Shown: positions 894 to 33,974 of the stretch, in pieces | Numbering within the stretch: position 1 is the first letter of the stretch | Layout of the letters: every line of letters begins with the position of its first letter | UHGV virus genome: UHGV-0276200 | Direction: 5' to 3' (one strand) | Source: a virus | Length of the DNA stretch: 34,282 nucleotides | Notes under the pieces: generated by a model | Seen by the model: the letters and a program-made list of their open reading frames with translations, nothing else | Databases searched by the model: none | Told to the model about the DNA's origin: nothing | Translations under genes and position numbers: made by a program

Positions 894-2099
894 TCATGGT
901 TTAATATGGGCATATACTTGAATTTCATCCATACAAGTTTCGAGTTTATAAAAGTCAGTTAAATTATAGATGTTCAAAATTTCATCATCTATGCTTCCTG
1001 TTAGCTCACGATTTTTTCTTCTTCGTAGCCTTCTGCTGAGATTCTCTCGATCGGATTGTGCAACTGATTCAGGCACGTACTCAACTGTTTTTAGGACCTG
1101 CCAAGATACAGGCAATGTGAATTTGAAAATTTTCGCTAGATTTGGACAAAATTCATTATTGGCCATCTCCTCGTAACGCACTTTTGGAGGAAGTACCACA
1201 TTTATTCCTCTGCTACCTAAGGCATTAGCAGGTAATTTTGTTGAGCGGTAGGCTATACCAACAACATTCTCATTGCTGTTCCGACTGATCCATTGCATCA
1301 AAAGATTGGGGATAATATATTCTTGTACAAAGGAAGCATTGTCATATTTTTTTAAATAATTGCATGCAATTATCAAAGGCCAAAGTGCTAAATATGAGAG
1401 TTTGGTATTGAAATCATATTTGTTCTTTCTTTTTGACTCTAATATAGATCTCTGTTTATATAAAAAATCAGGTCCTATATTTAGTACCTTTGAGTCATTA
1501 TTTTTATCGATCTTGTAGGCAGATATATATAGCTTATCAAAATCTGGCTTATCCATTTCTCTCCAGCATATATAAAGAGATGTTCCTAAATATAAACAGG
1601 GTAGACCAGCAACTGAAAATCTCTGTGCTCTAACAAAGTGACGCTGACTGAACGGAATATGAAACATATCTCTTCTTGATGTAAGTGGCGTATCAGATTT
1701 TCTAACGCGGAATAATGGTTTATCTTCATTACATAAGTCAGAAAGAGGTATGCATATATTTTCAATATGACGAGATATAGTTCGTGGCTCTAGCATACTT
1801 TCAAATGAGTCATATGCCGACTTAATATCCCCTGATAAAAAACACTCTAAACACGAGACGATTTCTTTCTGCATGATATCTACAGCTCTAAGTCTATTGC
1901 GCAAGCGTAAACTTAACCTGTTATCATTTTCCTGGATGTAATCTACTAAACAACCCCGGAATTTACTGCATTTTAGAGCGAAGTCATCTATCAAAGTAAG
2001 GTTTTTTTCAATCTCAATTGGTGGTCGAATACTTGATTTTTTTCTAATAGTGTCAAAAAGATTATTAAGTTCTTCATCGAGTTCTTGTTGAATATGCAT
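894..2099 (-). CDS. Hypothetical AT-rich cargo protein (401 aa) downstream of int; central segment resembles a RES-domain signature (tentative)
   Basis: Uninterrupted 401-codon ORF starting 9 nt after the int stop, with no obvious SD. Much lower GC than backbone. Segment FRVRKSD...QRFSVAGLPCLYLGTSLYICWRE matches the R-F-x...P-x-LYL-x-x-S...C-x-x-E pattern recalled for RES toxins such as MbcT. Confidence 0.6.
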   Translation of the reverse strand: MHIQQELDEELNNLFDTIRKKSSIRPPIEIEKNLTLIDDFALKCSKFRGCLVDYIQENDNRLSLRLRNRLRAVDIMQKEIVSCLECFLSGDIKSAYDSFESMLEPRTISRHIENICIPLSDLCNEDKPLFRVRKSDTPLTSRRDMFHIPFSQRHFVRAQRFSVAGLPCLYLGTSLYICWREMDKPDFDKLYISAYKIDKNNDSKVLNIGPDFLYKQRSILESKRKNKYDFNTKLSYLALWPLIIACNYLKKYDNASFVQEYIIPNLLMQWISRNSNENVVGIAYRSTKLPANALGSRGINVVLPPKVRYEEMANNEFCPNLAKIFKFTLPVSWQVLKTVEYVPESVAQSDRENLSRRLRRRKNRELTGSIDDEILNIYNLTDFYKLETCMDEIQVYAHIKP

Positions 2100-2108
2100 T
2101 TTTATTTA

Positions 2109-3125
2109 TCACTTTAAGTTAAATAAGGGGTTTTTAGTAACAGCATCTTCAAGATGTTCTGGTGCGAAATGGGCATAGACCATTGTCATTTTTATATCTG
2201 AGTGCCCTAAAATATCTCTCAATACAAGAATATTTCCGCCATTCATCATAAAGTGACTAGCGAATGTATGGCGCAATACATGCGTGCACTGGCCCTCTGG
2301 CAAGTCAATACCTGCTCTTTTTACTGCACGCTCAAAAGATTTTCTGCATGGCGTGAATAACTTCCCTCTGTTTTTGGGGAGTTCGTGATACAGATCTTGA
2401 GATATTGGTACTGTTCTGTTTTTCTTGCCCTTTGTCTTTGTATAAGTAATTCGGTATTTCGATATTTGGTGGCCCTGAAGGTTTTCGGCTTCACTCCACC
2501 GTGCGCCGGTAGCTAAGCATATTTTTGCAATCATTAGTAGGCTCGGGCTTTGAGATTCAGCACATGCAGCCAACAGGCGCTTGATTTCGTCCACGGAAAG
2601 AAAAGCCAGCTCACCTTCGGTAATTTTGAAGGTCGGAAGTCCTGCCAGCGGGTTTGGTGCTGACCAGTGTCCTAGTTTTTTTAATGTACCGAACACCGAT
2701 GATAGATTGCGCTGTTCAAGGTTTACCGTGCGGGGCTTAACGGGCGACATAAGCGTGCCATCTTCATTTCGTACTTCACCTTTTAACCGTGCTTCGCGGT
2801 ATTTCGTAAAGTCACCGGCTGTTAGTTCTGAGGCGATGGGATCGCCTAGACCATTACAGATAATTCTAAGTTTCGCCATGAGGCGCTTGGGGTCTGCGAG
2901 TGTTTGACCATACAGGGAATACCACTGCTCAATTAATTCTGATAGGTGTCGCCGATCTTCCTTTTCCCCCAGCCATGGTTTTTTGTTCACTTCTTCCATT
3001 GTGAAGCTTTCAAAAGCAATGGCTTCGCCTTTCGTAGCAAATTGCTTACGCACGCGCTTGCCATTGCGTCCATTGGGATAGCACTCGCACAACCATTTAC
3101 CGTTTGGCTGTTTTCTGACAGTCAT
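2109..3125 (-). CDS. int: Tyrosine integrase (P2 Int family)
   Basis: 338 aa. N-terminus GRNGKRVRKQF...AFE resembles P2 Int; C-terminus has HxLRHTFAS...GH...MVYAH catalytic R/H/R/Y-type motifs. Located next to the att site. Confidence 0.9.
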   Translation of the reverse strand: MTVRKQPNGKWLCECYPNGRNGKRVRKQFATKGEAIAFESFTMEEVNKKPWLGEKEDRRHLSELIEQWYSLYGQTLADPKRLMAKLRIICNGLGDPIASELTAGDFTKYREARLKGEVRNEDGTLMSPVKPRTVNLEQRNLSSVFGTLKKLGHWSAPNPLAGLPTFKITEGELAFLSVDEIKRLLAACAESQSPSLLMIAKICLATGARWSEAENLQGHQISKYRITYTKTKGKKNRTVPISQDLYHELPKNRGKLFTPCRKSFERAVKRAGIDLPEGQCTHVLRHTFASHFMMNGGNILVLRDILGHSDIKMTMVYAHFAPEHLEDAVTKNPLFNLK

Positions 3126-5480: not shown

Positions 5481-5707
5481 TGGCTGATGCAATGGATCTC
5501 GTACAGCAGCGCGTTGAAGAAGAACGCCAGCGCCATATTCGTGCTGCCCGTGCCAAAACACCGGGCGTGTCTCGCGTGCTTTGTATTGAATGTGAAGCGC
5601 CAATTCCGCCGGCACGACGCCGCGCCATTCCGGGAGTGCAGCTTTGCATTACCTGCCAGGAAATCGCAGAGCTGAAAGGCAAACATTACAACGGAGGTGC
5701 TGTATGA
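5480..5707 (+). CDS. TraR/DksA-family C4 zinc-finger protein
   Basis: 75 aa with CIECEAPIPPARRRAIPGVQLCITCQ (CxxC-N17-CxxC). AGGAG RBS upstream. Confidence 0.7.
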   Translation: MADAMDLVQQRVEEERQRHIRAARAKTPGVSRVLCIECEAPIPPARRRAIPGVQLCITCQEIAELKGKHYNGGAV

Positions 5708-6561
5708 GCACCATCCTGAAATGGGCGGGAAATAAAACCGCCAATATGTCCGAACTGAAAAAACACCTTCCTGCTGGCCCGCGACTGGTTGAACCTTTCG
5801 CGGGTTCCTGTGCTGTGATGATGGAGACGGATTACCCCAGCTATCTGGTTGCGGATATTAATCCTGATTTAATCAACCTCTATAAAAAGGTTGCCGCTGA
5901 TTGTGAATCGTTTATATCTCGCGCCAGAGTTTTATTTGAGATCGCAAACAGGGAGGTGGCTTATTACAACATAAGGCAGGAGTTTAATTACTCCACTGAA
6001 ATTACTGATTTCATGAAAGCGGTATATTTCCTGTATCTCAATCGTCACGGTTACCGTGGTTTATGTCGTTATAACAAGAGCGGGCATTTCAACATTCCCT
6101 ACGGTAATTATAAAAATCCGTATTTCCCTGAAAAAGAAATTCGTGCATTTGCAGAAAAAGCCCAGCGGGCAACATTTATCTGCGCCAGCTTCGATGAAAC
6201 GCTGGCAATGTTGCACGCGGGAGATGTGGTGTATTGCGATCCGCCGTATGACGGTACGTTTTCCGGCTATCACACTGATGGTTTCACTGAAGATGACCAG
6301 TATCACCTGGCATCCGTTCTTGAACATCGGTCATCAGAAGGACATCCAGTCATTGTTTCTAACAGTGACACATCCCTGATCCGTTCGCTGTATCGCAATT
6401 TTACTCACCACTATATCAAGGTAAAACGCAGCATCGGTGTGGCAGCTGGCGAGGGTAAATCAGCAACAGAAATCATTGCTGTTTCCGGGCCGTGCTGCTG
6501 GATGGGATTTGATTATTCGCGTGGCGTGGATAGTTCTGCCGTGTACGGAGTACGTGCATGA
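5704..6561 (+). CDS. dam: DNA adenine methyltransferase (Dam-like, N6-adenine)
   Basis: N-terminal LKWAGNK motif and catalytic DPPY motif ([12 protein letters not shown]). The track ORF 5644 is an upstream over-extension. Confidence 0.85.
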
Positions 6562-8972
6562 CTCATGCCGATATGAACAACTGCTGCGGCTTTAACGAGG
6601 CTGCCGCAGCATTCTCATGGAACAGCCCGAAAAAGGCCATTAACCCTTATCTGGACCCGGCGGAAGTTGCGCCGGTTTCTACGCTTTCAAACCTGATCAC
6701 TCTGTACGCTGCCGATAACGAGCAGGAACAGTTGCGCCGCGAGGCACTGAGTGATCAGGTCTGGGAGCGTTATTTCTTTAATGAATCACGTGATCCTGTC
6801 CAGCGCGAAATGGAGCAGGATAAGCTCATTAGCCGGGCAAAGCTGGCGCATGAGCAGCAGCGTTTTAATTCAGACATGGTCATTCTGGCGGACGTCAACG
6901 CCCAGCCTTCCCATATCAGCAAGCCGCTGATGCAACGTATTGAATACTTCAGCAGCCTGGGCAGGCCAAAGGCTTATTCCCGCTATTTACGTGAGACGAT
7001 TAAGCCATGTCTGGAACGACTGGAGCATGTACGCGACAGTCAGCTATCTGCATCTTTTCGCTTTATGGCAAGCCATGAAGGGCTGGACGGCCTGCTGATC
7101 CTGCCTGAAATGAGTCAGGATCAGGTGAAACGCCTGTCCACCCTGGTAGCTGCGCATATGAGTATGTGCCTTGATGCAGCTTGTGGTGATTTGTATGCCA
7201 CCGATGACGTTAAGCCAGAAGAAATCCGCAAGACATGGGAAAAGGTGGCAGCGGAAACCCTGCGTCTGGATGTCATCCCACCTGCGTTTGAGCAACTCCG
7301 TCGGAAAAGAAACCGCCGTAAACCCGTGCCCTATGAACTCATTCCGGGTTCGCTGGCGCGTATGTTGTGCGCCGACTGGTGGTATCGGAAATTATGGAAG
7401 ATGCGTTGCGAATGGCGGGAAGAGCAGTTGCGCGCTGTTTGCCTGGTCAGCAAAAAAGCATCTCCTTATGTCAGCTATGAAGCCGTGATGCATAAACGTG
7501 AGCAGCGCCGTAAGTCGCTGGAGTTTTTCCGTTCTCATGAACTGGTGAACGAAGACGGCGACACGCTGGACATGGAGGATGTGGTAAACGCCAGCAGCAG
7601 CAACCCTGCGCATCGCCGCAATGAGATGATGGCCTGTGTTAAAGGTCTGGAGCTTATCGCGGAAATGCGCGGTGACTGCGCCGTTTTCTACACTATCACC
7701 TGTCCGTCGCGTTTCCATTCCACGCTAAATAACGGCAGACCAAACCCGACCTGGACAAACGCGACGGTAAGACAAAGCAGCGATTATCTGGTCGGCATGT
7801 TTGCTGCATTTCGTAAGGCGATGCACAAAGCCGGGTTGCGCTGGTATGGCGTGCGGGTGGCTGAGCCGCATCATGATGGCACAGTTCACTGGCACCTGTT
7901 GTGTTTCATGCGCAAAAAAGACCGCCGTGCCATCACTGCATTACTGCGTAAGTTTGCCATCCGTGAAGACCGCGAGGAGCTGGGCAATAACACTGGGCCG
8001 CGCTTTAAGTCTGAGTTGATTAACCCGCGCAAAGGAACGCCGACAAGCTACATCGCGAAATATATCAGTAAGAACATTGACGGTCGTGGTCTGGCTGGCG
8101 AGATCAGCAAGGAAACGGGTAAATCTCTGCGTGATAACGCTGAATACGTGAATGCCTGGGCGTCTTTGCATCGTGTTCAGCAATTCCGCTTCTTTGGCAT
8201 TCCGGGGCGTCAGGCTTACCGTGAACTGCGATTGTTGGCTGGTCAGGCGGCAAGGCAACAGGGGGACAAAAATGCAGGTGCGCCGGTACTGGATAACCCG
8301 CGTCTTGATGCCATTCTGGCTGCTGCTGATGCTGGTTGTTTTGCCACCTACATCATGAAGCAGGGCGGCGTACTGGTTCCCCGTAAATATCACCTCATCA
8401 GAACCGCTTATGAAATCAACGAAGAGCCGACCGCCTATGGCGATCACGGCATTCGTATTTATGGCATCTGGTCACCCATTGCAGAGGGCAAGATCTGCAC
8501 TCATGCAGTGAAGTGGAAAATGGTTCGTAAAGCCGTTGACGTTCAGGAGGCGGCAGCCGACCAGGGCGCTTGCGCCCCTTGGACTCGTGGCAATAACTGT
8601 CCCCTTGCTGAAAATTTGAACCAACAAGGGAAAGACAAATCAGCTGATGGGGATACCAGAACGGAAATCACCCGCATGGATGACAAGGAATTGCACGATT
8701 ACCTGCACAGTATGAGCAAAAAAGAGCGCCGGGAACTGGCAGCAAGGTTACGCCTGGTTAAACCGAAACGGCGTAAAGACTACAAACAGCGAATTACAGA
8801 TCATCAGCGACAGCAGCTCGTCTATGAACTGAAGTCCAGAGGATTTGATGGCAGCGAGAAAGAGGTCGATTTACTCCTTCGCGGCGGCAGTATTCCGTCA
8901 GGAGCAGGCCTGCGTATCTTCTATCGGAACCAGCGTCTGCAGGAGGATGATAAATGGCGGAACCTGTATTAA
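6558..8972 (+). CDS. A: Replication initiation protein A (rolling-circle nickase, P2 gpA family)
   Basis: 804 aa. HUH-like motif ([10 protein letters not shown]) and tyrosine motif ([12 protein letters not shown]). Positioned after the early operon as in P2/186. Confidence 0.85.
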
Positions 8973-9064
8973 TTACGCAGGTTAACAATTCGTGCTCTTA
9001 ATAATACCAGGCATATCAGGCTGATGAGCGTAAAAAAACGTTTTACATCAGTAAGATTATTATA

Positions 9065-9084
9065 TACTGTAAATATAAACAGTG
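9065..9084. promoter_or_regulatory. LexA (SOS) box
   Basis: tactgtaaatataaacagtg matches the LexA consensus TACTGTATATATATACAGTA at 17 of 20 positions with perfect CTGT-N8-ACAG. Overlaps candidate -10 elements about 45 bp upstream of ORF 9125. Confidence 0.6.
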
Positions 9085-9124
9085 GTTATGTATACAGTGT
9101 TGCTTTGGTGTCATAGGAGGAAAG

Positions 9125-9313
9125 ATGCAGGACTATTTTTTGGAGTCTTTGAAGCTCCAGCGCATTGATTTTTTTCTTAAGCTTGTAGCGGCTAGTGAGT
9201 GTAGTGATGAAGAGAAGGGGCTGGCCCTGCAGTGGGTTTCTGAACTGACAGATGAACTCATGGCAAAAATCAGAACCCACGAATACAACCGCTCAATGGA
9301 TGTCATCAGCTGA
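9125..9313 (+). CDS. Small hypothetical protein, first gene after the LexA box (possible Tum-like antirepressor module)
   Basis: 62 aa, RBS GGAGG before the ATG. The antirepressor assignment rests on position only, by analogy with 186 tum. Confidence 0.4.
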   Translation: MQDYFLESLKLQRIDFFLKLVAASECSDEEKGLALQWVSELTDELMAKIRTHEYNRSMDVIS

Positions 9314-9323
9314 GGTGACTTTT

Positions 9324-9557
9324 ATGCGCATTGAAATAATGATCGATAAAGAGCAGAAGATTAGCCAGTCTACCCTGGACGCTCTGGAGTCCGAGCTTTA
9401 CCGCAACCTGCAACCCATCTATCCCAAGACAGCTATCCGCATCCGTAAAGGGTCGGCAAACGGCGTTGAGCTGAGTGGCTTAAAGCTTGATGAAGACAAA
9501 AAGCGGGTGATGGAAATTATGCAGCAGGTTTGGGAAGACGACAGCTGGCTGCACTAA
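9324..9557 (+). CDS. dinI: DinI-family protein
   Basis: 78 aa. MRIEIMIDK...TLDALESELYRNLQPIYP...EIMQQVWEDDSW aligns along its whole length with E. coli DinI. The track ORF 9252 is an over-extension. Confidence 0.8.
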   Translation: MRIEIMIDKEQKISQSTLDALESELYRNLQPIYPKTAIRIRKGSANGVELSGLKLDEDKKRVMEIMQQVWEDDSWLH

Positions 9558-9630
9558 GGAACGTTCCTGATGTAAGAACTTGATTCTGACGTCAGCAAGG
9601 TTGAACAACGAGAGTAGCGAGGCGTTAGCC

Positions 9631-9891
9631 ATGGGTAAAAAAGACAGTAATCACCAGATTATTTATCGGGGCCAGGTGCTGGAACGGTTTACCCCTGGCG
9701 GCTGGGTCTTCTTTCAACGCCCAAAGGAGTGTGGCGGAGGTTTTTGGTTGGGCCGCACCTATGAAGACTGCTTCTGGCTTGAGCTGGAATTCCCCGTTTC
9801 GCTATATGACGGCCTGGAGTTTTTGATGGAAGTCACCAGGGTAGAGCAGAGAAGTGATGAGGTTGACGCGAATTATTCCCTGTTTGATTAA
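9631..9891 (+). CDS. Hypothetical protein
   Basis: ATG at 9631 (MGKKDSNHQ...); no domain recognised. Confidence 0.4.
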   Translation: MGKKDSNHQIIYRGQVLERFTPGGWVFFQRPKECGGGFWLGRTYEDCFWLELEFPVSLYDGLEFLMEVTRVEQRSDEVDANYSLFD

Positions 9892-9939
9892 AAATGTATT
9901 AGCTTATAATGGAATACTATTTTTGCAGGTGGGGGCGCA

Positions 9940-10551
9940 ATGGATTTAGTCTTTAAAATTCTGGCTTCGTTGGGTGGGGTGTCTTTTGTTGCATCTGGCA
10001 TATTTGTTTGGATCGGGAAAGTTTATTTAGAAAGATATAAGTCGCGGCTAAACAAAGATATTGCTGAATTTCAATCACAACTGAGTGCAACTAATGAAAG
10101 AATAAAGGCTAAGTTAGACAATTCTGTTTATGTAACGAAAGCGTATTTTGATAAGGAGTTATCAGCATATAGTCTCATTTGGAATTCGATGTTTGAAACC
10201 AGAGAAAGCGTGCTTAAGCTGAGGCCTGCGCTGGATCATTTTGACCCCAACGAACCATTTGAAGAGAGAAAATTTAGAAGGTTGAAAGTTTTTTTCGATG
10301 CATTTAATACTTTTGTTACAAGTGTTGAGTCTAACAAACCGTTCATCTCACCAGAGGTTTATATAATCTTGGACCGTTTCCGGAAGGAATGCCTTTCAGA
10401 GTCAATATCGTTTCAGCATGGCGATCCAGAATTTGACTGGCAAAATTATTGGAAAGAGGCAGAGTTGAACCGTACAACCATCACCAAGCTTTTTGATGAG
10501 ACGTGTGATGCAATTCGAGACAGGATGCACACATTAACTGTGGTTACGTAG
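9940..10551 (+). CDS. Hypothetical membrane-anchored cargo protein (N-terminal transmembrane helix)
   Basis: 203 aa; residues about 5-26 are hydrophobic (ILASLGGVSFVASGIFVWIG), followed by a charged, helix-rich soluble region. AT-rich. Confidence 0.55.
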   Translation: MDLVFKILASLGGVSFVASGIFVWIGKVYLERYKSRLNKDIAEFQSQLSATNERIKAKLDNSVYVTKAYFDKELSAYSLIWNSMFETRESVLKLRPALDHFDPNEPFEERKFRRLKVFFDAFNTFVTSVESNKPFISPEVYIILDRFRKECLSESISFQHGDPEFDWQNYWKEAELNRTTITKLFDETCDAIRDRMHTLTVVT

Positions 10552-10642
10552 TTTTCCAAAAAGTCTCGATGCCCGCTTTGGCGATTGTGCATGTCTATGC
10601 CGCATGAATCCGCATGATCGTTTGAGGATCGTTTTAGCTGAG

Positions 10643-10669
10643 GCCCGCTAGGAATGGCGGGCTTTTGCT
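10643..10669 (+). terminator. Rho-independent terminator
   Basis: GCCCGC (10643-48), 8-nt loop, GCGGGC (10657-62), then TTTTGCTT. Confidence 0.5.
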
Positions 10670-10711
10670 TATGTCATGCAGGCGCATGAAAACCACTACA
10701 TAAAGCGGGCA

Positions 10712-10730
10712 GGCGTGGCGGGGATACGAG
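10712..10730. other. Candidate cos site (cohesive-end sequence)
   Basis: ggcgtggcgggga (10712..10724) matches the first 13 nt of the 186/P2-type 19-nt cohesive end as recalled from memory (186 GGCGTGGCGGGGAAAGCAT). Confidence 0.5.
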
Positions 10731-10840
10731 CGCGCGCTCATGGTTGAATTAATGAAATTATGGTGTTAAATAGGCTAGCTTTTTAAGTCGTGAATATTCA
10801 ATTTTTCAACTCATTTTTTTCATAGGGAGGAGTAATTGAC

Positions 10841-11539
10841 ATGGTTATGTTAGTGGATGACTGTCCACGATGTGGATCACAAAAAATAGCGTTTGATGTT
10901 AATGGGCTGAATTGCACTAGGGTTTACAATGCATTGGGCGGGGGTAAAACATACGAGTACGAGGTCTATTGTGTTTGCCGAGAGTGTCATAAAACGACAA
11001 TGTTTCTTTGCAGACCTTTAACGAAAAATAAAACTTTAGATGGCTATAATTGGGAAAGTGGAATATTCGGCTTAAAGGAAGTTGCAGAGGTTGTTAGGCC
11101 TATATCACCGGCAGACTTAGCAGTAGAGGAGCCACCAGAGTTCTTACCTGAGCATATCAATAGTGCATATGAGGAAGGGGCGAAATGTTTGGCTATAGGT
11201 TGTTATAATGCAGCAGCAACCATGTTTAGGCTTTGCCTTGATTATGCCACAAAAGGACTTCTTCCTGATGGGGAGCAAGGGCCTGCGCAAAAAATAAGGA
11301 GAAGCCTAGGGTTAAGAATGGAGTGGTTATTTGATAATCATCTACTGCCTGAAGCTTTAAGGGAACTAGCTGAATGCGTTAAAGATGACGGAAATGATGG
11401 AGCGCATGAAGGTATTTTGGATAAAGCTGCTGCTGAGGATCTTGAAGATTTTACCTATCTTTTTTTAGAACGGCTTTACACTGAACCTCAACGCCTTATC
11501 GAAGCCAAGACAAGGCGTGAACAAAGAAGAAACAAATAA
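10841..11539 (+). CDS. Hypothetical cargo protein: N-terminal zinc ribbon plus C-terminal DUF4145-like domain
   Basis: 232 aa; CPRCGS...CVCRECHK gives four Cys. C-terminal helical region with GNDGAHEG and the following acidic helix resembles the DUF4145 signature as recalled. Strong RBS GGGAGGAG. About 42% GC. Lies between cos and the Q stop. Confidence 0.6.
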   Translation: MVMLVDDCPRCGSQKIAFDVNGLNCTRVYNALGGGKTYEYEVYCVCRECHKTTMFLCRPLTKNKTLDGYNWESGIFGLKEVAEVVRPISPADLAVEEPPEFLPEHINSAYEEGAKCLAIGCYNAAATMFRLCLDYATKGLLPDGEQGPAQKIRRSLGLRMEWLFDNHLLPEALRELAECVKDDGNDGAHEGILDKAAAEDLEDFTYLFLERLYTEPQRLIEAKTRREQRRNK

Positions 11540-11547
11540 GTTCGGAA

Positions 11548-12585
11548 TTATTCTTCTGAAAGAATATAGGGCGTAAATTTAATCACTTCTTCGCCCAGCC
11601 AGTCGTTCAGCTCTTGTAGCCTTTTTTGCAAGGGCGTTAATTCATTACGTACAAATACGCGACTAGCCTTCTCCACATCCCCAAACCCTCCAACATTATT
11701 AGGCATAATCCCCATCATTTGCGGCGGCACGCGGTGCGCAGCCATCATGTCGTCGCGGCTGACATTTTTGATATTCAAAAACTCATCCTTCGCCGCGACT
11801 TCTGACAATGGGATGATCTGAAGCCCGTCTTTTTTGCCGTTAGGCGAGTACATAAACAGGTTGCGGAAGTTGCCTGGACCTTTGGCGCTTTTCATCGCAT
11901 TGCGGAGGTTGTTCACATCCTCCTGGTTTTGCGCGGCATCGGTCATGTACATGATAAAGCCCGCATGACTGCCGTTAATGTAATACTTGCGACGGAACAG
12001 CGTGGCGGACTCGTTGAGCAGGGCTGACGGAATGGCAGAAAGATAACCGGGCAGGCCGTAGATCTCCTGATTAATATCCGGTTCCATCAGATGAAAAATG
12101 CTGCCTTTCGTGAACTGATACGGCTGGGTTGTCATACCGTATTGCACAAACCAGTAGGTATCCAGGTCTAACCCGCGTCGGGTGTATTTTGCCAGTGCAG
12201 GCTCAAGGGCGATAACTTCACCGAAGCGGTTCGTGCGTTTCTCCAGGTAGGCGTTACCAAAAACCAGATAGTCCTGCACAAAACGCGAAAAAGCCTGCTG
12301 GCTGAGCAGCGGGTGAGGGATGTAGGTGCTGGTCAGAATGTTGCACTTTACTGCAATCGGGGAACTATGATGCACGGCAGCGCGGAAGGTGCGCGCCAGT
12401 CCGTCAAAGCTGACGGGCGGCTCATACCAGCGGTCCATCTGTACGCATTCCACATAATCCAGCAGTTCTCGGCGGTCCAGAACAGGAACGGGATCGCCGA
12501 AGCTGAATGCTTCGGCTGTAGTTTGACTTTTAAGCTGGATCTGTTTCGTCGCCGCAGCGCGGTTCTTCTTACTCTTTCCCATCAA
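11548..12585 (-). CDS. Q: Portal protein (P2 gpQ family)
   Basis: 345 aa (P2 Q is about 344), directly downstream of and overlapping the terminase gene. Confidence 0.85.
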   Translation of the reverse strand: MMGKSKKNRAAATKQIQLKSQTTAEAFSFGDPVPVLDRRELLDYVECVQMDRWYEPPVSFDGLARTFRAAVHHSSPIAVKCNILTSTYIPHPLLSQQAFSRFVQDYLVFGNAYLEKRTNRFGEVIALEPALAKYTRRGLDLDTYWFVQYGMTTQPYQFTKGSIFHLMEPDINQEIYGLPGYLSAIPSALLNESATLFRRKYYINGSHAGFIMYMTDAAQNQEDVNNLRNAMKSAKGPGNFRNLFMYSPNGKKDGLQIIPLSEVAAKDEFLNIKNVSRDDMMAAHRVPPQMMGIMPNNVGGFGDVEKASRVFVRNELTPLQKRLQELNDWLGEEVIKFTPYILSEE

Positions 12586-19933: not shown

Positions 19934-20464
19934 TTACGCTCTTAATAAACTTAAATAACTTTTTATGCTTTGGCAAAAAGGGAAAAGGTCTATTTTAATT
20001 TTCCAGTTTTTTTTGTTTTGAACCCCAGAAGCAATAATAGAACCGTCCCAATATTTTATTCCATTTTTGCCGGTCTTTTTTGTTAACTCAAAACTTAATG
20101 CGTGAATAATTTTATTGCAGCATTCGCGTATAGAATCTTTAACATGACCATCTATAACAAAAAGTATATTTTCATGTTCTTCAAATGCTTCTTTCTCAGG
20201 TGAGTAATCTGGGTTCCACTCATGTTCACTAGTGTCTTGGAGAATTCGTAGTTTTGTACAAAGGCTAATAAGATTGTTGCTAATGGTATATTCCAACCAT
20301 CCGTTGTACGATAACTCCTCCATTTCAAATTCAGTTACTATAGAACCATCATATACTTTCTGTGTGGAATATATACGCTGTAAATAAAATTCAGATGAAC
20401 AGCATAATTGCTCAATTATTCTTGCGTGTTCTTCTATAGCGTAATAATCAATTGGATGGCTCAT
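19934..20464 (-). CDS. Hypothetical AT-rich moron protein between S and V
   Basis: Antisense to the late operon. ATG at 20464 (MSHPIDYY...) preceded by a GAAAGG RBS. Stop lies 5 bp from the S stop. No domain recognised. Confidence 0.5.
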   Translation of the reverse strand: MSHPIDYYAIEEHARIIEQLCCSSEFYLQRIYSTQKVYDGSIVTEFEMEELSYNGWLEYTISNNLISLCTKLRILQDTSEHEWNPDYSPEKEAFEEHENILFVIDGHVKDSIRECCNKIIHALSFELTKKTGKNGIKYWDGSIIASGVQNKKNWKIKIDLFPFCQSIKSYLSLLRA

Positions 20465-20495
20465 TCTTTTACCTTTCTTTGATTGGAATTGTATT

Positions 20496-20513
20496 TGTGT
20501 CATTTACCACACA
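20496..20513. promoter_or_regulatory. Ogr-type late promoter activator site (TGT-N12-ACA) upstream of V
   Basis: tgtgtcatttaccacaca, about 47 bp upstream of the V start. Confidence 0.45.
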
Positions 20514-33472: not shown

Positions 33473-33496
33473 AACCTGCTACGGCAGGTTTTTATT
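33473..33496. terminator. Bidirectional terminator hairpin between convergent ogr and the WYL-BRCT gene
   Basis: AACCTGC-TACG-GCAGGTT (7-bp stem) followed by TTTATT on the plus strand; placed just after both stop codons. Confidence 0.5.
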
Positions 33497-33974
33497 CATC
33501 TGGGATCTCACCCGTTTCAAGAAAATGTATAAAGCCAGGCTCATCTATGATGATAGTGCCTTTCATCCTGGCTGCCGATACTTTTGATGGGCCTGCATTG
33601 TAACCGCAACAGAGCATCTGAAGGTTTTGGGTTACAGATGTTCTTACCGTTAATCCTTGTTCATTCGCCTTATCAACCAACCTTTCTTTATCTGCTTTCT
33701 TAAATCCGGTGAAACACACATCGAATGTATTTTTTTTCGGACCTGACTGCTTAGTGAGATGTGAGTAGTTTTCGGGGAGGAATGACGCGCATTCCTGAAT
33801 GGCTTGTTCTTGTGAATCGTATTGTTTAAGAATGCGGTCTTTTCGGAAGGTTTTTATTCGATCGGTGTTCTTACAAATGCCCTGTATGTGATTTTCGCTA
33901 TAACTGATGCTCTGTATTGAGTGAACACCGATACGACCATTTGCATTGATGTAAACAAAGTGAAGTTCTTCCAT
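33492..33974 (-). CDS. Hypothetical cargo protein: N-terminal WYL-like domain fused to C-terminal BRCT domain
   Basis: 160 aa. N-terminus YINANGRIGVHSIQSISYSENHIQGICKNTDRIKTFRKDRI fits the WYL pattern (...R.FR.DRI). C-terminus VCFTGF...KERLVDKANEQGLTVRTSVTQNLQMLCCGYNAGPSKVSAARMKGTIIIDEPGF aligns with the BRCT domain of NAD-dependent ligase LigA. AGAGG RBS; about 42% GC. Confidence 0.6.
   Translation of the reverse strand: MEELHFVYINANGRIGVHSIQSISYSENHIQGICKNTDRIKTFRKDRILKQYDSQEQAIQECASFLPENYSHLTKQSGPKKNTFDVCFTGFKKADKERLVDKANEQGLTVRTSVTQNLQMLCCGYNAGPSKVSAARMKGTIIIDEPGFIHFLETGEIPDE

Follow-up and report, generated by a model that had tools for sequence, protein, structure and literature searches.

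What does the small, predicted membrane-anchored protein encoded beside the cohesive-end site (cos) of a P2-like prophage do, and does it act alone or together with the gene on the other side of that site? The question is raised by an open reading frame (ORF) for 203 amino acids at positions 9940-10551 of the virus genome UHGV-0276200, a stretch of 34,282 nucleotides (hereafter, the window) which is prophage Cartapus, a P2/Fels-2-like prophage of the adherent-invasive Escherichia coli strain LF82. A first-pass annotation of this DNA had read the gene as membrane-anchored hotspot cargo with a terminator of its own, and as a possible partner of a DUF4145-like gene nearby. We find that the gene is an optional, AT-rich cargo of the A-to-cos arm of the P2 hotspot, and that the gpA-gpQ hotspot consists of two independently recombining arms, separated by a cos flank of about 150 base pairs with a terminator-like hairpin. 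Consequently, adjacency across cos should not be taken for an operon. As for the function of the protein, superinfection exclusion or abortive infection is the most plausible reading, on circumstantial grounds, namely the slot that the gene occupies, its expression in the lysogen and the contexts of its homologues.

Results

Two arms of one hotspot

The elements of the locus, in window positions, are the following.

6558-8972: replication endonuclease gpA, upstream of the 203-residue gene
9125-9313, plus strand: ORF of 62 amino acids, between gpA and DinI
9324-9557, plus strand: DinI, between the ORFs of 62 and 86 amino acids
9631-9891, plus strand: ORF of 86 amino acids (phrog_2100, unknown function), directly upstream of the 203-residue gene
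9940-10551, plus strand: coding sequence for 203 amino acids, ATG start, stop codon included (LF82_789 / CARTA_47 / LF82_RS13710 / WP_000366628.1)
10643-10669, plus strand: GC-rich hairpin with a short U-tract (terminator-like), a backbone element of the cos flank
10712-10730, plus strand: cos core GGCGTGGCGGGGATACGAG, of the P2/186 cohesive-end type, a module boundary
10841-11539, plus strand: DUF4145 gene, across cos from the 203-residue gene

The portal and terminase genes follow on the opposite strand, beyond the DUF4145 gene. Over 9000-10680 the window is identical (100%) to the end of the Cartapus record (OV696611/NC_070909), the GenBank record having been opened at window position 10680/10681. 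The position of the gene between gpA and the cos of a P2-like prophage agrees with its earlier description as cargo in the A-to-cos arm, and so does its composition with the label AT-rich (38.6% GC vs 50.7% in the window). It is present in 52 of 5,426 complete E. coli genomes and missing from related Klebsiella P2-like phages. The gpA-gpQ region of P2-like phages is known as a hotspot for anti-phage systems that also holds non-defence cargo, such as partition systems and the cytolethal distending toxin, and exactly the present arrangement is catalogued in Table S5A of Rousset et al. (PMC9122126), where the 203-residue gene is labelled 'hypothetical'.

Is the gene, then, one half of a two-gene system, in which its product would serve as the membrane effector or anchor of an RNase encoded by the DUF4145 gene? 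The two genes are adjacent in the prophage, are induced together in Dulbecco's modified Eagle medium (DMEM) and in macrophages, and adjoin each other in 25 of the 52 E. coli genomes that carry the 203-residue gene. However, the other 27 lack the DUF4145 gene, their matches reaching only to about 10737-10762, just past cos, and the DUF4145 gene occurs without the 203-residue gene in at least 17 genomes among the matches listed. The pair is found in only 4 of 20 IMG/VR loci, and a DUF4145 neighbour in none of the distant homologue contexts annotated or scanned. Homology with other prophages ends at about 10737, just past the cos core and thus between the two genes, which moreover lie at opposite ends of the packaged genome. 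In 28 P2-like loci the distance from the start of the gene to cos is constant (772 nucleotides, as a 0-based offset), and the cargo beyond cos comes in about 16 arrangements, among them PDC-S59, PDC-S49, PDC-M03A, PDC-S33 and ShosA-type proteins. In particular, an identical orthologue (P0002) is found in six P2-like prophages with six different cargos across cos: a 223-residue unknown protein; AIPR; STM3845 with a reverse transcriptase; an OLD-like ATPase; AAA_21 with RloB; and a Schlafen/HATPase protein. Aligned loci are near-identical through the hairpin and the cos core, and similarity is lost abruptly after GGCGTGGCGGGG(A/C)TACGAGCGCGCG.

The neighbour itself carries an N-terminal Cys4 motif (CPRCGS...CRECH) ahead of a DUF4145 domain (Pfam, 4.5e-7), matches the PADLOC model PD-T7-4 at 1.2e-6 and, by its sequence, seems distantly related to RAZR, a zinc-finger HEPN RNase with a zinc ribbon and a DUF4145 domain. 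It may be either an orthologue of RAZR proper or the DS-38-type variant reported in the DefensePredictor preprint. PD-T7-4 has been renamed RAZR, a single-protein abortive-infection RNase that is activated by phage ring proteins (PMC13017515), which speaks against the need for a second component. The 203-residue protein is unrelated to this neighbour (hhalign probability 0.2%). It was also considered as a HEPN/DUF4145 RNase in its own right and rejected, as it lacks the Rx4-6H motif: across the family, conservation extends to R193 and R195 and not to H197, whose distance from the two arginines would give Rx3H or RxH. The co-occurrence analysis that the first-pass annotation had proposed thus shows independent assortment, and we drop the partnership, which we regard as barely credible.

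What holds the two arms apart is a conserved flank of 156 base pairs (10585-10740), found in 1,242 of the 5,426 E. coli genomes, only 52 of which carry the 203-residue gene; genomes with the DUF4145 gene and without the 203-residue gene still match from about 10585 onward. The hairpin lies within this flank. Its stem-loop (10643-10662), followed by UUUU, folds at -18.1 kcal/mol (z = -4.3, with 0 of 200 shuffles folding as well), although a simple consensus terminator scan leaves it unflagged, and in loci with other cargo the stem is kept by pair-preserving changes (C-G to U-G; U-G to C-G). Of the clean terminator formerly ascribed to the gene, therefore, the stable hairpin is real, but it belongs to the conserved cos flank and is not the gene's own. 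It is a backbone element, a presumptive terminator, which probably insulates cos from the A-side cargo. Ahead of the hairpin and the cos core, two pairs of short direct repeats are invariant across loci (CCGCATGA at 10600/10610 and GATCGTTT at 10616/10627), and these may be recognised by the terminase.

The gene and its expression

The ORF is present, as had been proposed, and annotated in LF82, being 100% identical to LF82_RS13710 / WP_000366628.1. Judging from substitution rates, it is under purifying selection: the ratio of non-synonymous to synonymous changes (dN/dS) against an 83%-identical Enterobacter/Citrobacter orthologue is 0.12-0.14 (dS about 0.75, dN about 0.097). In the same loci the gene is conserved while the adjoining upstream ORF of 86 amino acids has decayed. 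Namely, that ORF is intact in E. coli and a pseudogene in Enterobacter/Citrobacter-type prophages (L003 and L005, at about 5690-5950), with its start codon lost, a frameshift and a stop; there DinI is deleted and the 203-residue gene intact. Two control elements precede the gene.

9884-9910, plus strand: promoter-like TTGATT-N15-TATAAT, about 30 nucleotides upstream of the start codon, read from the sequence
9927-9932, plus strand: Shine-Dalgarno sequence AGGTGG, with the AGGT core kept in orthologues

Both hexamers of the promoter-like element are invariant in five Enterobacter/Citrobacter-type orthologous loci; a consensus scan does not call it because its spacer is 15 nucleotides. Taken together with published RNA sequencing, it most likely acts as the promoter of the gene. 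The expression values (log2, two replicates where given) come from the S1 table of Misson et al. (PMC9928086) and are, for LF82_789 (2759532-2760143, the 203-residue gene) and its neighbours, as follows.

Lysogeny broth (LB): LF82_789 5.42 / 5.61; DUF4145 gene 4.65 / 4.71; 62-residue/DinI/86-residue block low
DMEM, 1 h: LF82_789 7.09 / 7.32; DUF4145 gene 7.00 / 7.23; block low
DMEM, 6 h: LF82_789 8.62 / 8.53; DUF4145 gene 7.57 / 7.60; block low
Macrophage, 1 h: LF82_789 8.99 / 9.04; DUF4145 gene 9.24 / 9.20; block rises
Macrophage, 6 h: LF82_789 10.53 / 10.52; DUF4145 gene 9.52 / 9.62; block rises

LF82_789 is one of the two Cartapus morons (7-fold over the prophage background in LB) and one of only two non-repressor genes of the prophage that are clearly expressed in the lysogen; its level in DMEM is about 8 times, and in macrophages about 30 times, that in LB. 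Since gpA, Dam and all structural genes stay at 2.3-3, this rise is not prophage induction. In LB the gene stands about 5-fold above the adjoining upstream ORF, and the DMEM induction is absent from the upstream operon; the gene is therefore under control of its own, consistent with the element at 9884-9910. The DUF4145 gene is likewise expressed in the lysogen, with a similar pattern of induction (PMC9928086).

Architecture of the protein

Along the coding sequence, the protein divides into three parts.

9952-10020, plus strand: residues 5-27, single membrane helix with family-conserved G12 and G26-K27 (from hydropathy and family statistics)
10021-10122, plus strand: residues 28-61, helical stalk, little conserved and varying in length (model helix 14-61; indels of 4-11 residues in homologues)
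10123-10548, plus strand: residues 62-203, predicted cytoplasmic four-helix bundle with a two-stranded sheet

The best hydrophobic 19-mer covers residues 7-25 (Kyte-Doolittle hydropathy 2.02). An N-terminal segment of this kind (hydropathy at least 1.5, median start at residue 9) is found in 94.5% of 237 full-length family members and a second hydrophobic segment in only 0.4%, in line with the single N-terminal transmembrane helix called earlier. Lysine and arginine average 3.0 in the 15 residues after the helix vs 0.5 before it and are more frequent after it in 95% of the members, so the positive-inside rule predicts an N-out/C-in orientation with the bundle in the cytoplasm.

The helix-rich soluble domain that had been noted is borne out by structure prediction. 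While a first AlphaFold model from close homologues only reached a mean predicted local distance difference test score (pLDDT) of 80.7, the model built with 61 diverse relatives has a pLDDT of 93.8 and a predicted template modelling score (pTM) of 0.72, with all five models above 91. It contains helices at residues 2-10, 14-61, 67-92, 107-131, 138-160 and 167-198 and two paired strands (63-65 and 199-201). Going by the model, a stalk of about 35 residues would connect the membrane helix to a bundle of four helices, of about 140 residues, which the small sheet clasps. Positions conserved in at least 80% of the 61 diverse members are G12 and G26 in the membrane helix; F70, E73, Y77 and W81 on one face of the first bundle helix; and L94-R95-P96, D99, R114, P134-F135, E154, I192-R193 and R195 in the rest of the bundle.

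A family of unnamed proteins

To which family does the protein belong? It matches PHROG 26391 over its whole length (E = 6e-144, residues 1-203 of 203), which is annotated 'unknown function', so that membership carries no functional information. Searches of NCBIfam and a sequence-profile search of the PDB gave no match, PADLOC-DB v2.0 no family at E<=1, and Pfam-A no family above its cut-off (SieB, Imm, holin, LemA, 4HB_MCP and HEPN-type families included). In a Pfam scan of the 61 diverse relatives no family was common to more than 3 of them, and Foldseek against viral structures (BFVD) gave nothing below E 1e-3. With remote homology search included, the earlier statement that there is no recognisable enzymatic motif therefore stands. 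Three candidates were rejected along the way. The best Pfam match, Val_tRNA-synt_C (16.7 bits vs a cut-off of 25.9), is a coiled-coil artefact, and it is this sub-threshold match that explains the occasional RefSeq misnomer 'valyl-tRNA synthetase'. The 205-residue orf1 protein of the P2-like phage HP1, suggested by Foldseek, has a profile-comparison probability of 0.3%. A holin or other lysis protein was also considered; Cartapus has its holin, endolysin and LysB genes in another place, and the lysogen, which expresses the 203-residue gene, keeps them silent.

The family is nonetheless large. While a word-seeded search found relatives in Enterobacteriaceae only, HMMER against 1.84 billion representatives returned 921 clusters at E<=1e-3 and 386 at E<=1e-10. 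Among the matches listed, the members are mostly of 180-230 residues and match over most of their length. Named sources are Dyella, Nitrospira, Corallococcus, Parvibaculum, Methylobacter, Methylotenera and Faecousia, as well as Pseudomonas and Clostridium phages and a Lactiplantibacillus plasmid; the family thus spans Proteobacteria, Nitrospira, Myxococcota and elements of Firmicutes. The LF82 gene has been catalogued before, namely in RefSeq, in PHROG, in the Rousset table and in the Misson list of morons, and a text search of the literature for the RefSeq accessions and the PHROG identifier found no mention of these. What is new is an unnamed family without a described function in the literature searched.

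What surrounds the distant homologues? Many cluster representatives lie on contigs of 1-4 kilobases, where context is uninformative; a metagenome scan yielded mostly short soil contigs and a narrower genome scan 4 loci. About 25 independent contexts could be compared, the P2 hotspot included, and about 15 of these bear hallmarks of mobile elements or defence. A 47%-identical homologue adjoins an AlpA-type gene such as P4-like satellites carry; another lies in a prophage region of Corallococcus, together with RusA and a P4-cII-like gene; and the Nitrospira homologue is near a transposase and an HsdM fragment. Others adjoin a restriction-modification fusion with Abi_alpha/PDC-S47, ImmA with DUF4411, an integrase, a PD-(D/E)XK nuclease or a type IIG-like methylase. 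In Pseudomonas phage Riah the homologue occupies the region between the early genes and cI, in Clostridium phage Maintenon the terS-terL gap, and in Lactiplantibacillus plantarum an element with int and VapE. An all-against-all BLAST of the neighbours across the independent contexts found no recurrent one, and the family is therefore stand-alone. Tight coupling to a partner was seen in one lineage only, that of a 27%-identical homologue in gut-metagenome elements (L016-L021), which lies beside a resolvase and RhuM and overlaps by one base an upstream DUF3800 gene, the PADLOC candidate PDC-S51 (7.8e-112; genes at 5850-7001 and 7001-7684 of L016).

Further cargo of the prophage

Several other accessory genes of Cartapus were seen in passing. 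A LexA-box-like site, TACTGTAAATATAAACAG (9065-9082, plus strand), sits 43 nucleotides upstream of the 62-residue ORF and is the sole match in the window, where chance would give 0.1; the macrophage-only induction of the 62-residue/DinI/86-residue block fits an SOS-controlled mini-operon in the hotspot. Three further ORFs are the following.

33492-33974, minus strand: LF82_783, 160 amino acids, 'putative exonuclease', at the far end of the prophage
19934-20503, minus strand: LF82_787, 189 amino acids, 33% GC, inserted on the opposite strand between tail-completion and baseplate genes
894-2099, minus strand: AT-rich ORF of 401 amino acids, adjoining the integrase (2109-3125)

LF82_783 is the strongest Cartapus moron (15-fold over background), and its only matches are a weak BRCT-like one and, at the C-terminus, the PADLOC candidate PDC-S48 (1.7e-7). 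LF82_787 has no Pfam or PADLOC match and is mildly induced in DMEM; it lies where P2 has orf30. The 401-residue ORF, again with no match in Pfam or PADLOC, falls within the prophage boundary by coordinate conversion and may be a further cargo slot.

Discussion

Proposed function and its alternatives

The candidate role that we favour for the 203-residue protein is that of a stand-alone phage-exclusion protein at the cytoplasmic face of the inner membrane. It is a tentative proposal, held at somewhat less than even confidence and based on location and context. Namely, the prophage would express a stand-alone accessory protein with a few residues outside the cell, followed by a glycine-containing membrane helix, which the stalk would link to a cytoplasmic, sensor-like bundle with conserved Arg/Glu-rich residues. 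The bundle would bind a phage-derived cue or component, be it protein or nucleic acid. The signal might then travel through the stalk and make the membrane helices self-associate so that the membrane leaks, which would amount to abortive infection; or else a component that DNA entry or replication requires, whether from phage or host, might be held at the membrane, which would amount to superinfection exclusion. One can go further and regard the whole family as widespread one-protein immune sensor-effectors, in which the chemoreceptor-like bundle senses a phage molecule by way of its conserved Arg/Glu residues and a rigid stalk switches the helix into a membrane-breaching oligomer, with neither partner enzyme nor second messenger, although we consider this extension unlikely.

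Several points weigh against phage exclusion. A text search of the literature found no experiment tying the protein or a homologue to phage resistance, and PADLOC has no model for it. About 10 of the roughly 25 independent contexts carry no hallmark of mobile elements or defence, the neighbours there being an ABC-transporter binding protein, ClpB, a methyltransferase, a membrane transporter, an omptin or a decarboxylase. The strong induction in DMEM and macrophages suits host adaptation equally well, and the positive-inside rule is the one source for the topology of the bundle. Our confidence is also tempered by published base rates: of 8 candidates from the P2 hotspot, 3 proved to be defensive (PMC9122126), and 15-32% of the unknowns of P2 are predicted to be antiviral (PMC13586616).

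Would the gene, then, be better understood as serving the lysogen in some other way? As a host-adaptation moron it would aid the lysogen under envelope, nutrient or intracellular stress without any anti-phage role, for example as a ligand or modulator of a membrane or cytoplasmic protein of the host. The rise in DMEM and macrophages independently of prophage induction is what one would expect in this case; many distant homologues stand singly among housekeeping-type genes; and, as noted above, the P2 hotspot is not reserved for defence. That said, the RAZR-like neighbour is induced likewise, and the pattern is therefore not specific to host adaptation; the shared induction may reflect de-repression of AT-rich DNA. 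The family also recurs in slots of phages, satellites and defence islands, and the main text of a preprint on CRISPR interference in LF82 during gut colonisation reports no fitness signal for the gene. All in all, we find a pure host-adaptation role rather unlikely. Alternatively, the protein could serve the phage's own life cycle and conflicts, leaving the host unprotected: it might, for example, counter defences, take part in the interplay with P4-like satellites, or modulate lysis or the entry of DNA for Cartapus itself. Such a role would suit a gene that sits directly beside cos on the phage backbone and has a homologue adjoining a satellite-like AlpA-type gene. However, the gene is active in the lysogen, where all lytic genes are silent; the prophage has its lysis cassette elsewhere; and most P2-like phages lack the gene, which is therefore not needed for the life cycle. 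This makes an accessory of the phage alone distinctly unlikely.

The gene could, finally, encode a selfish or addictive membrane toxin, or be a hitch-hiker of benefit to neither phage nor host. Small AT-rich genes for membrane proteins on mobile elements invite this explanation, and the morons of the LF82 prophages include toxins such as HokD (PMC9928086). Yet in the roughly 25 independent contexts neither an antitoxin nor a partner is conserved beside the gene, scanning 8900-11700 with Rfam gave no RNA family, and the gene is constitutively expressed in the lysogen, toxicity being unreported. Moreover, there is strong purifying selection on a folded cytoplasmic domain of 140 residues, which would be superfluous in a simple pore-forming toxin. 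We therefore consider the toxin or hitch-hiker quite improbable and retain phage exclusion as the preferred reading.

Comparison with known systems

How does the protein compare with known exclusion and defence proteins? Christie and Calendar, in 2016, reportedly placed the P2 exclusion genes tin and old in the gpA-to-cos arm. Like these, the 203-residue gene is an optional, lysogen-expressed single-gene cargo of that slot. Unlike Tin and Old, which are soluble and have known targets or nuclease activity, its product is, by prediction, membrane-anchored and without a catalytic motif; there is no sequence or domain similarity, and it has no OLD, TOPRIM or AAA match. The small inner-membrane anti-phage proteins SieA of P22, SieB of lambda and P22, Imm of T4 and RexB of lambda would be its analogues if the proposed function holds, and prophage-encoded proteins of the Sie/Rex type are lysogen-expressed as well. 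However, the corresponding Pfam families give no match even at E<=1, and proteins of this type are mostly polytopic or much smaller and do not carry a cytoplasmic helical bundle of 140 residues on a stalk.

In its layout, the protein may be likened to the type III CRISPR effectors Cam1 and Csx23 and to the membrane effectors of CBASS (cyclic-oligonucleotide-based anti-phage signalling systems) and Pycsar (pyrimidine cyclase systems), which likewise have one or more N-terminal membrane helices and a cytoplasmic ligand-sensing domain, and in which ligand binding drives membrane damage. These effectors, however, need a partner enzyme for their nucleotide signal, whereas no partner is conserved in the present family, nor was a CARF, SAVED or cNMP-binding domain found in it. 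As for the fold, the model shows the up-down four-helix bundle of the 4HB_MCP sensors (Tar/Tsr, TorS, PcaY and NarQ; PDB 4k0d, 3i9w, 6s18 and 2d4u), but identity is only 3-10% and there is no Pfam match. 4HB_MCP domains are periplasmic, lie between two membrane helices and are followed by signalling modules, whereas the bundle here is predicted to be cytoplasmic and C-terminal, follows a single membrane helix and has the extra two-stranded sheet. The recently described P4 systems Bandua, Aernus, Toga, Reve, Crouga and Hailong (PMC13586616) were considered too, and rejected, as their architecture differs from that of the 203-residue protein.

Implications

The interest of the gene is in our view moderate: the size of the family, the clean architecture and the expression in macrophages raise it, and its kind, an accessory cargo of a phage defence hotspot, is an ordinary one. 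If phage exclusion is true, the P2-hotspot repertoire would gain a new single-gene, membrane-anchored system, and a function would be found for a family of at least 921 sequence clusters that stands outside Pfam, PADLOC and structural annotation. The gene is carried by a strain associated with Crohn's disease and is among the prophage genes most strongly induced in macrophages, so that a part played in intracellular life would be interesting as well. Whatever the function of the protein may be, the two-arm structure of the hotspot holds.

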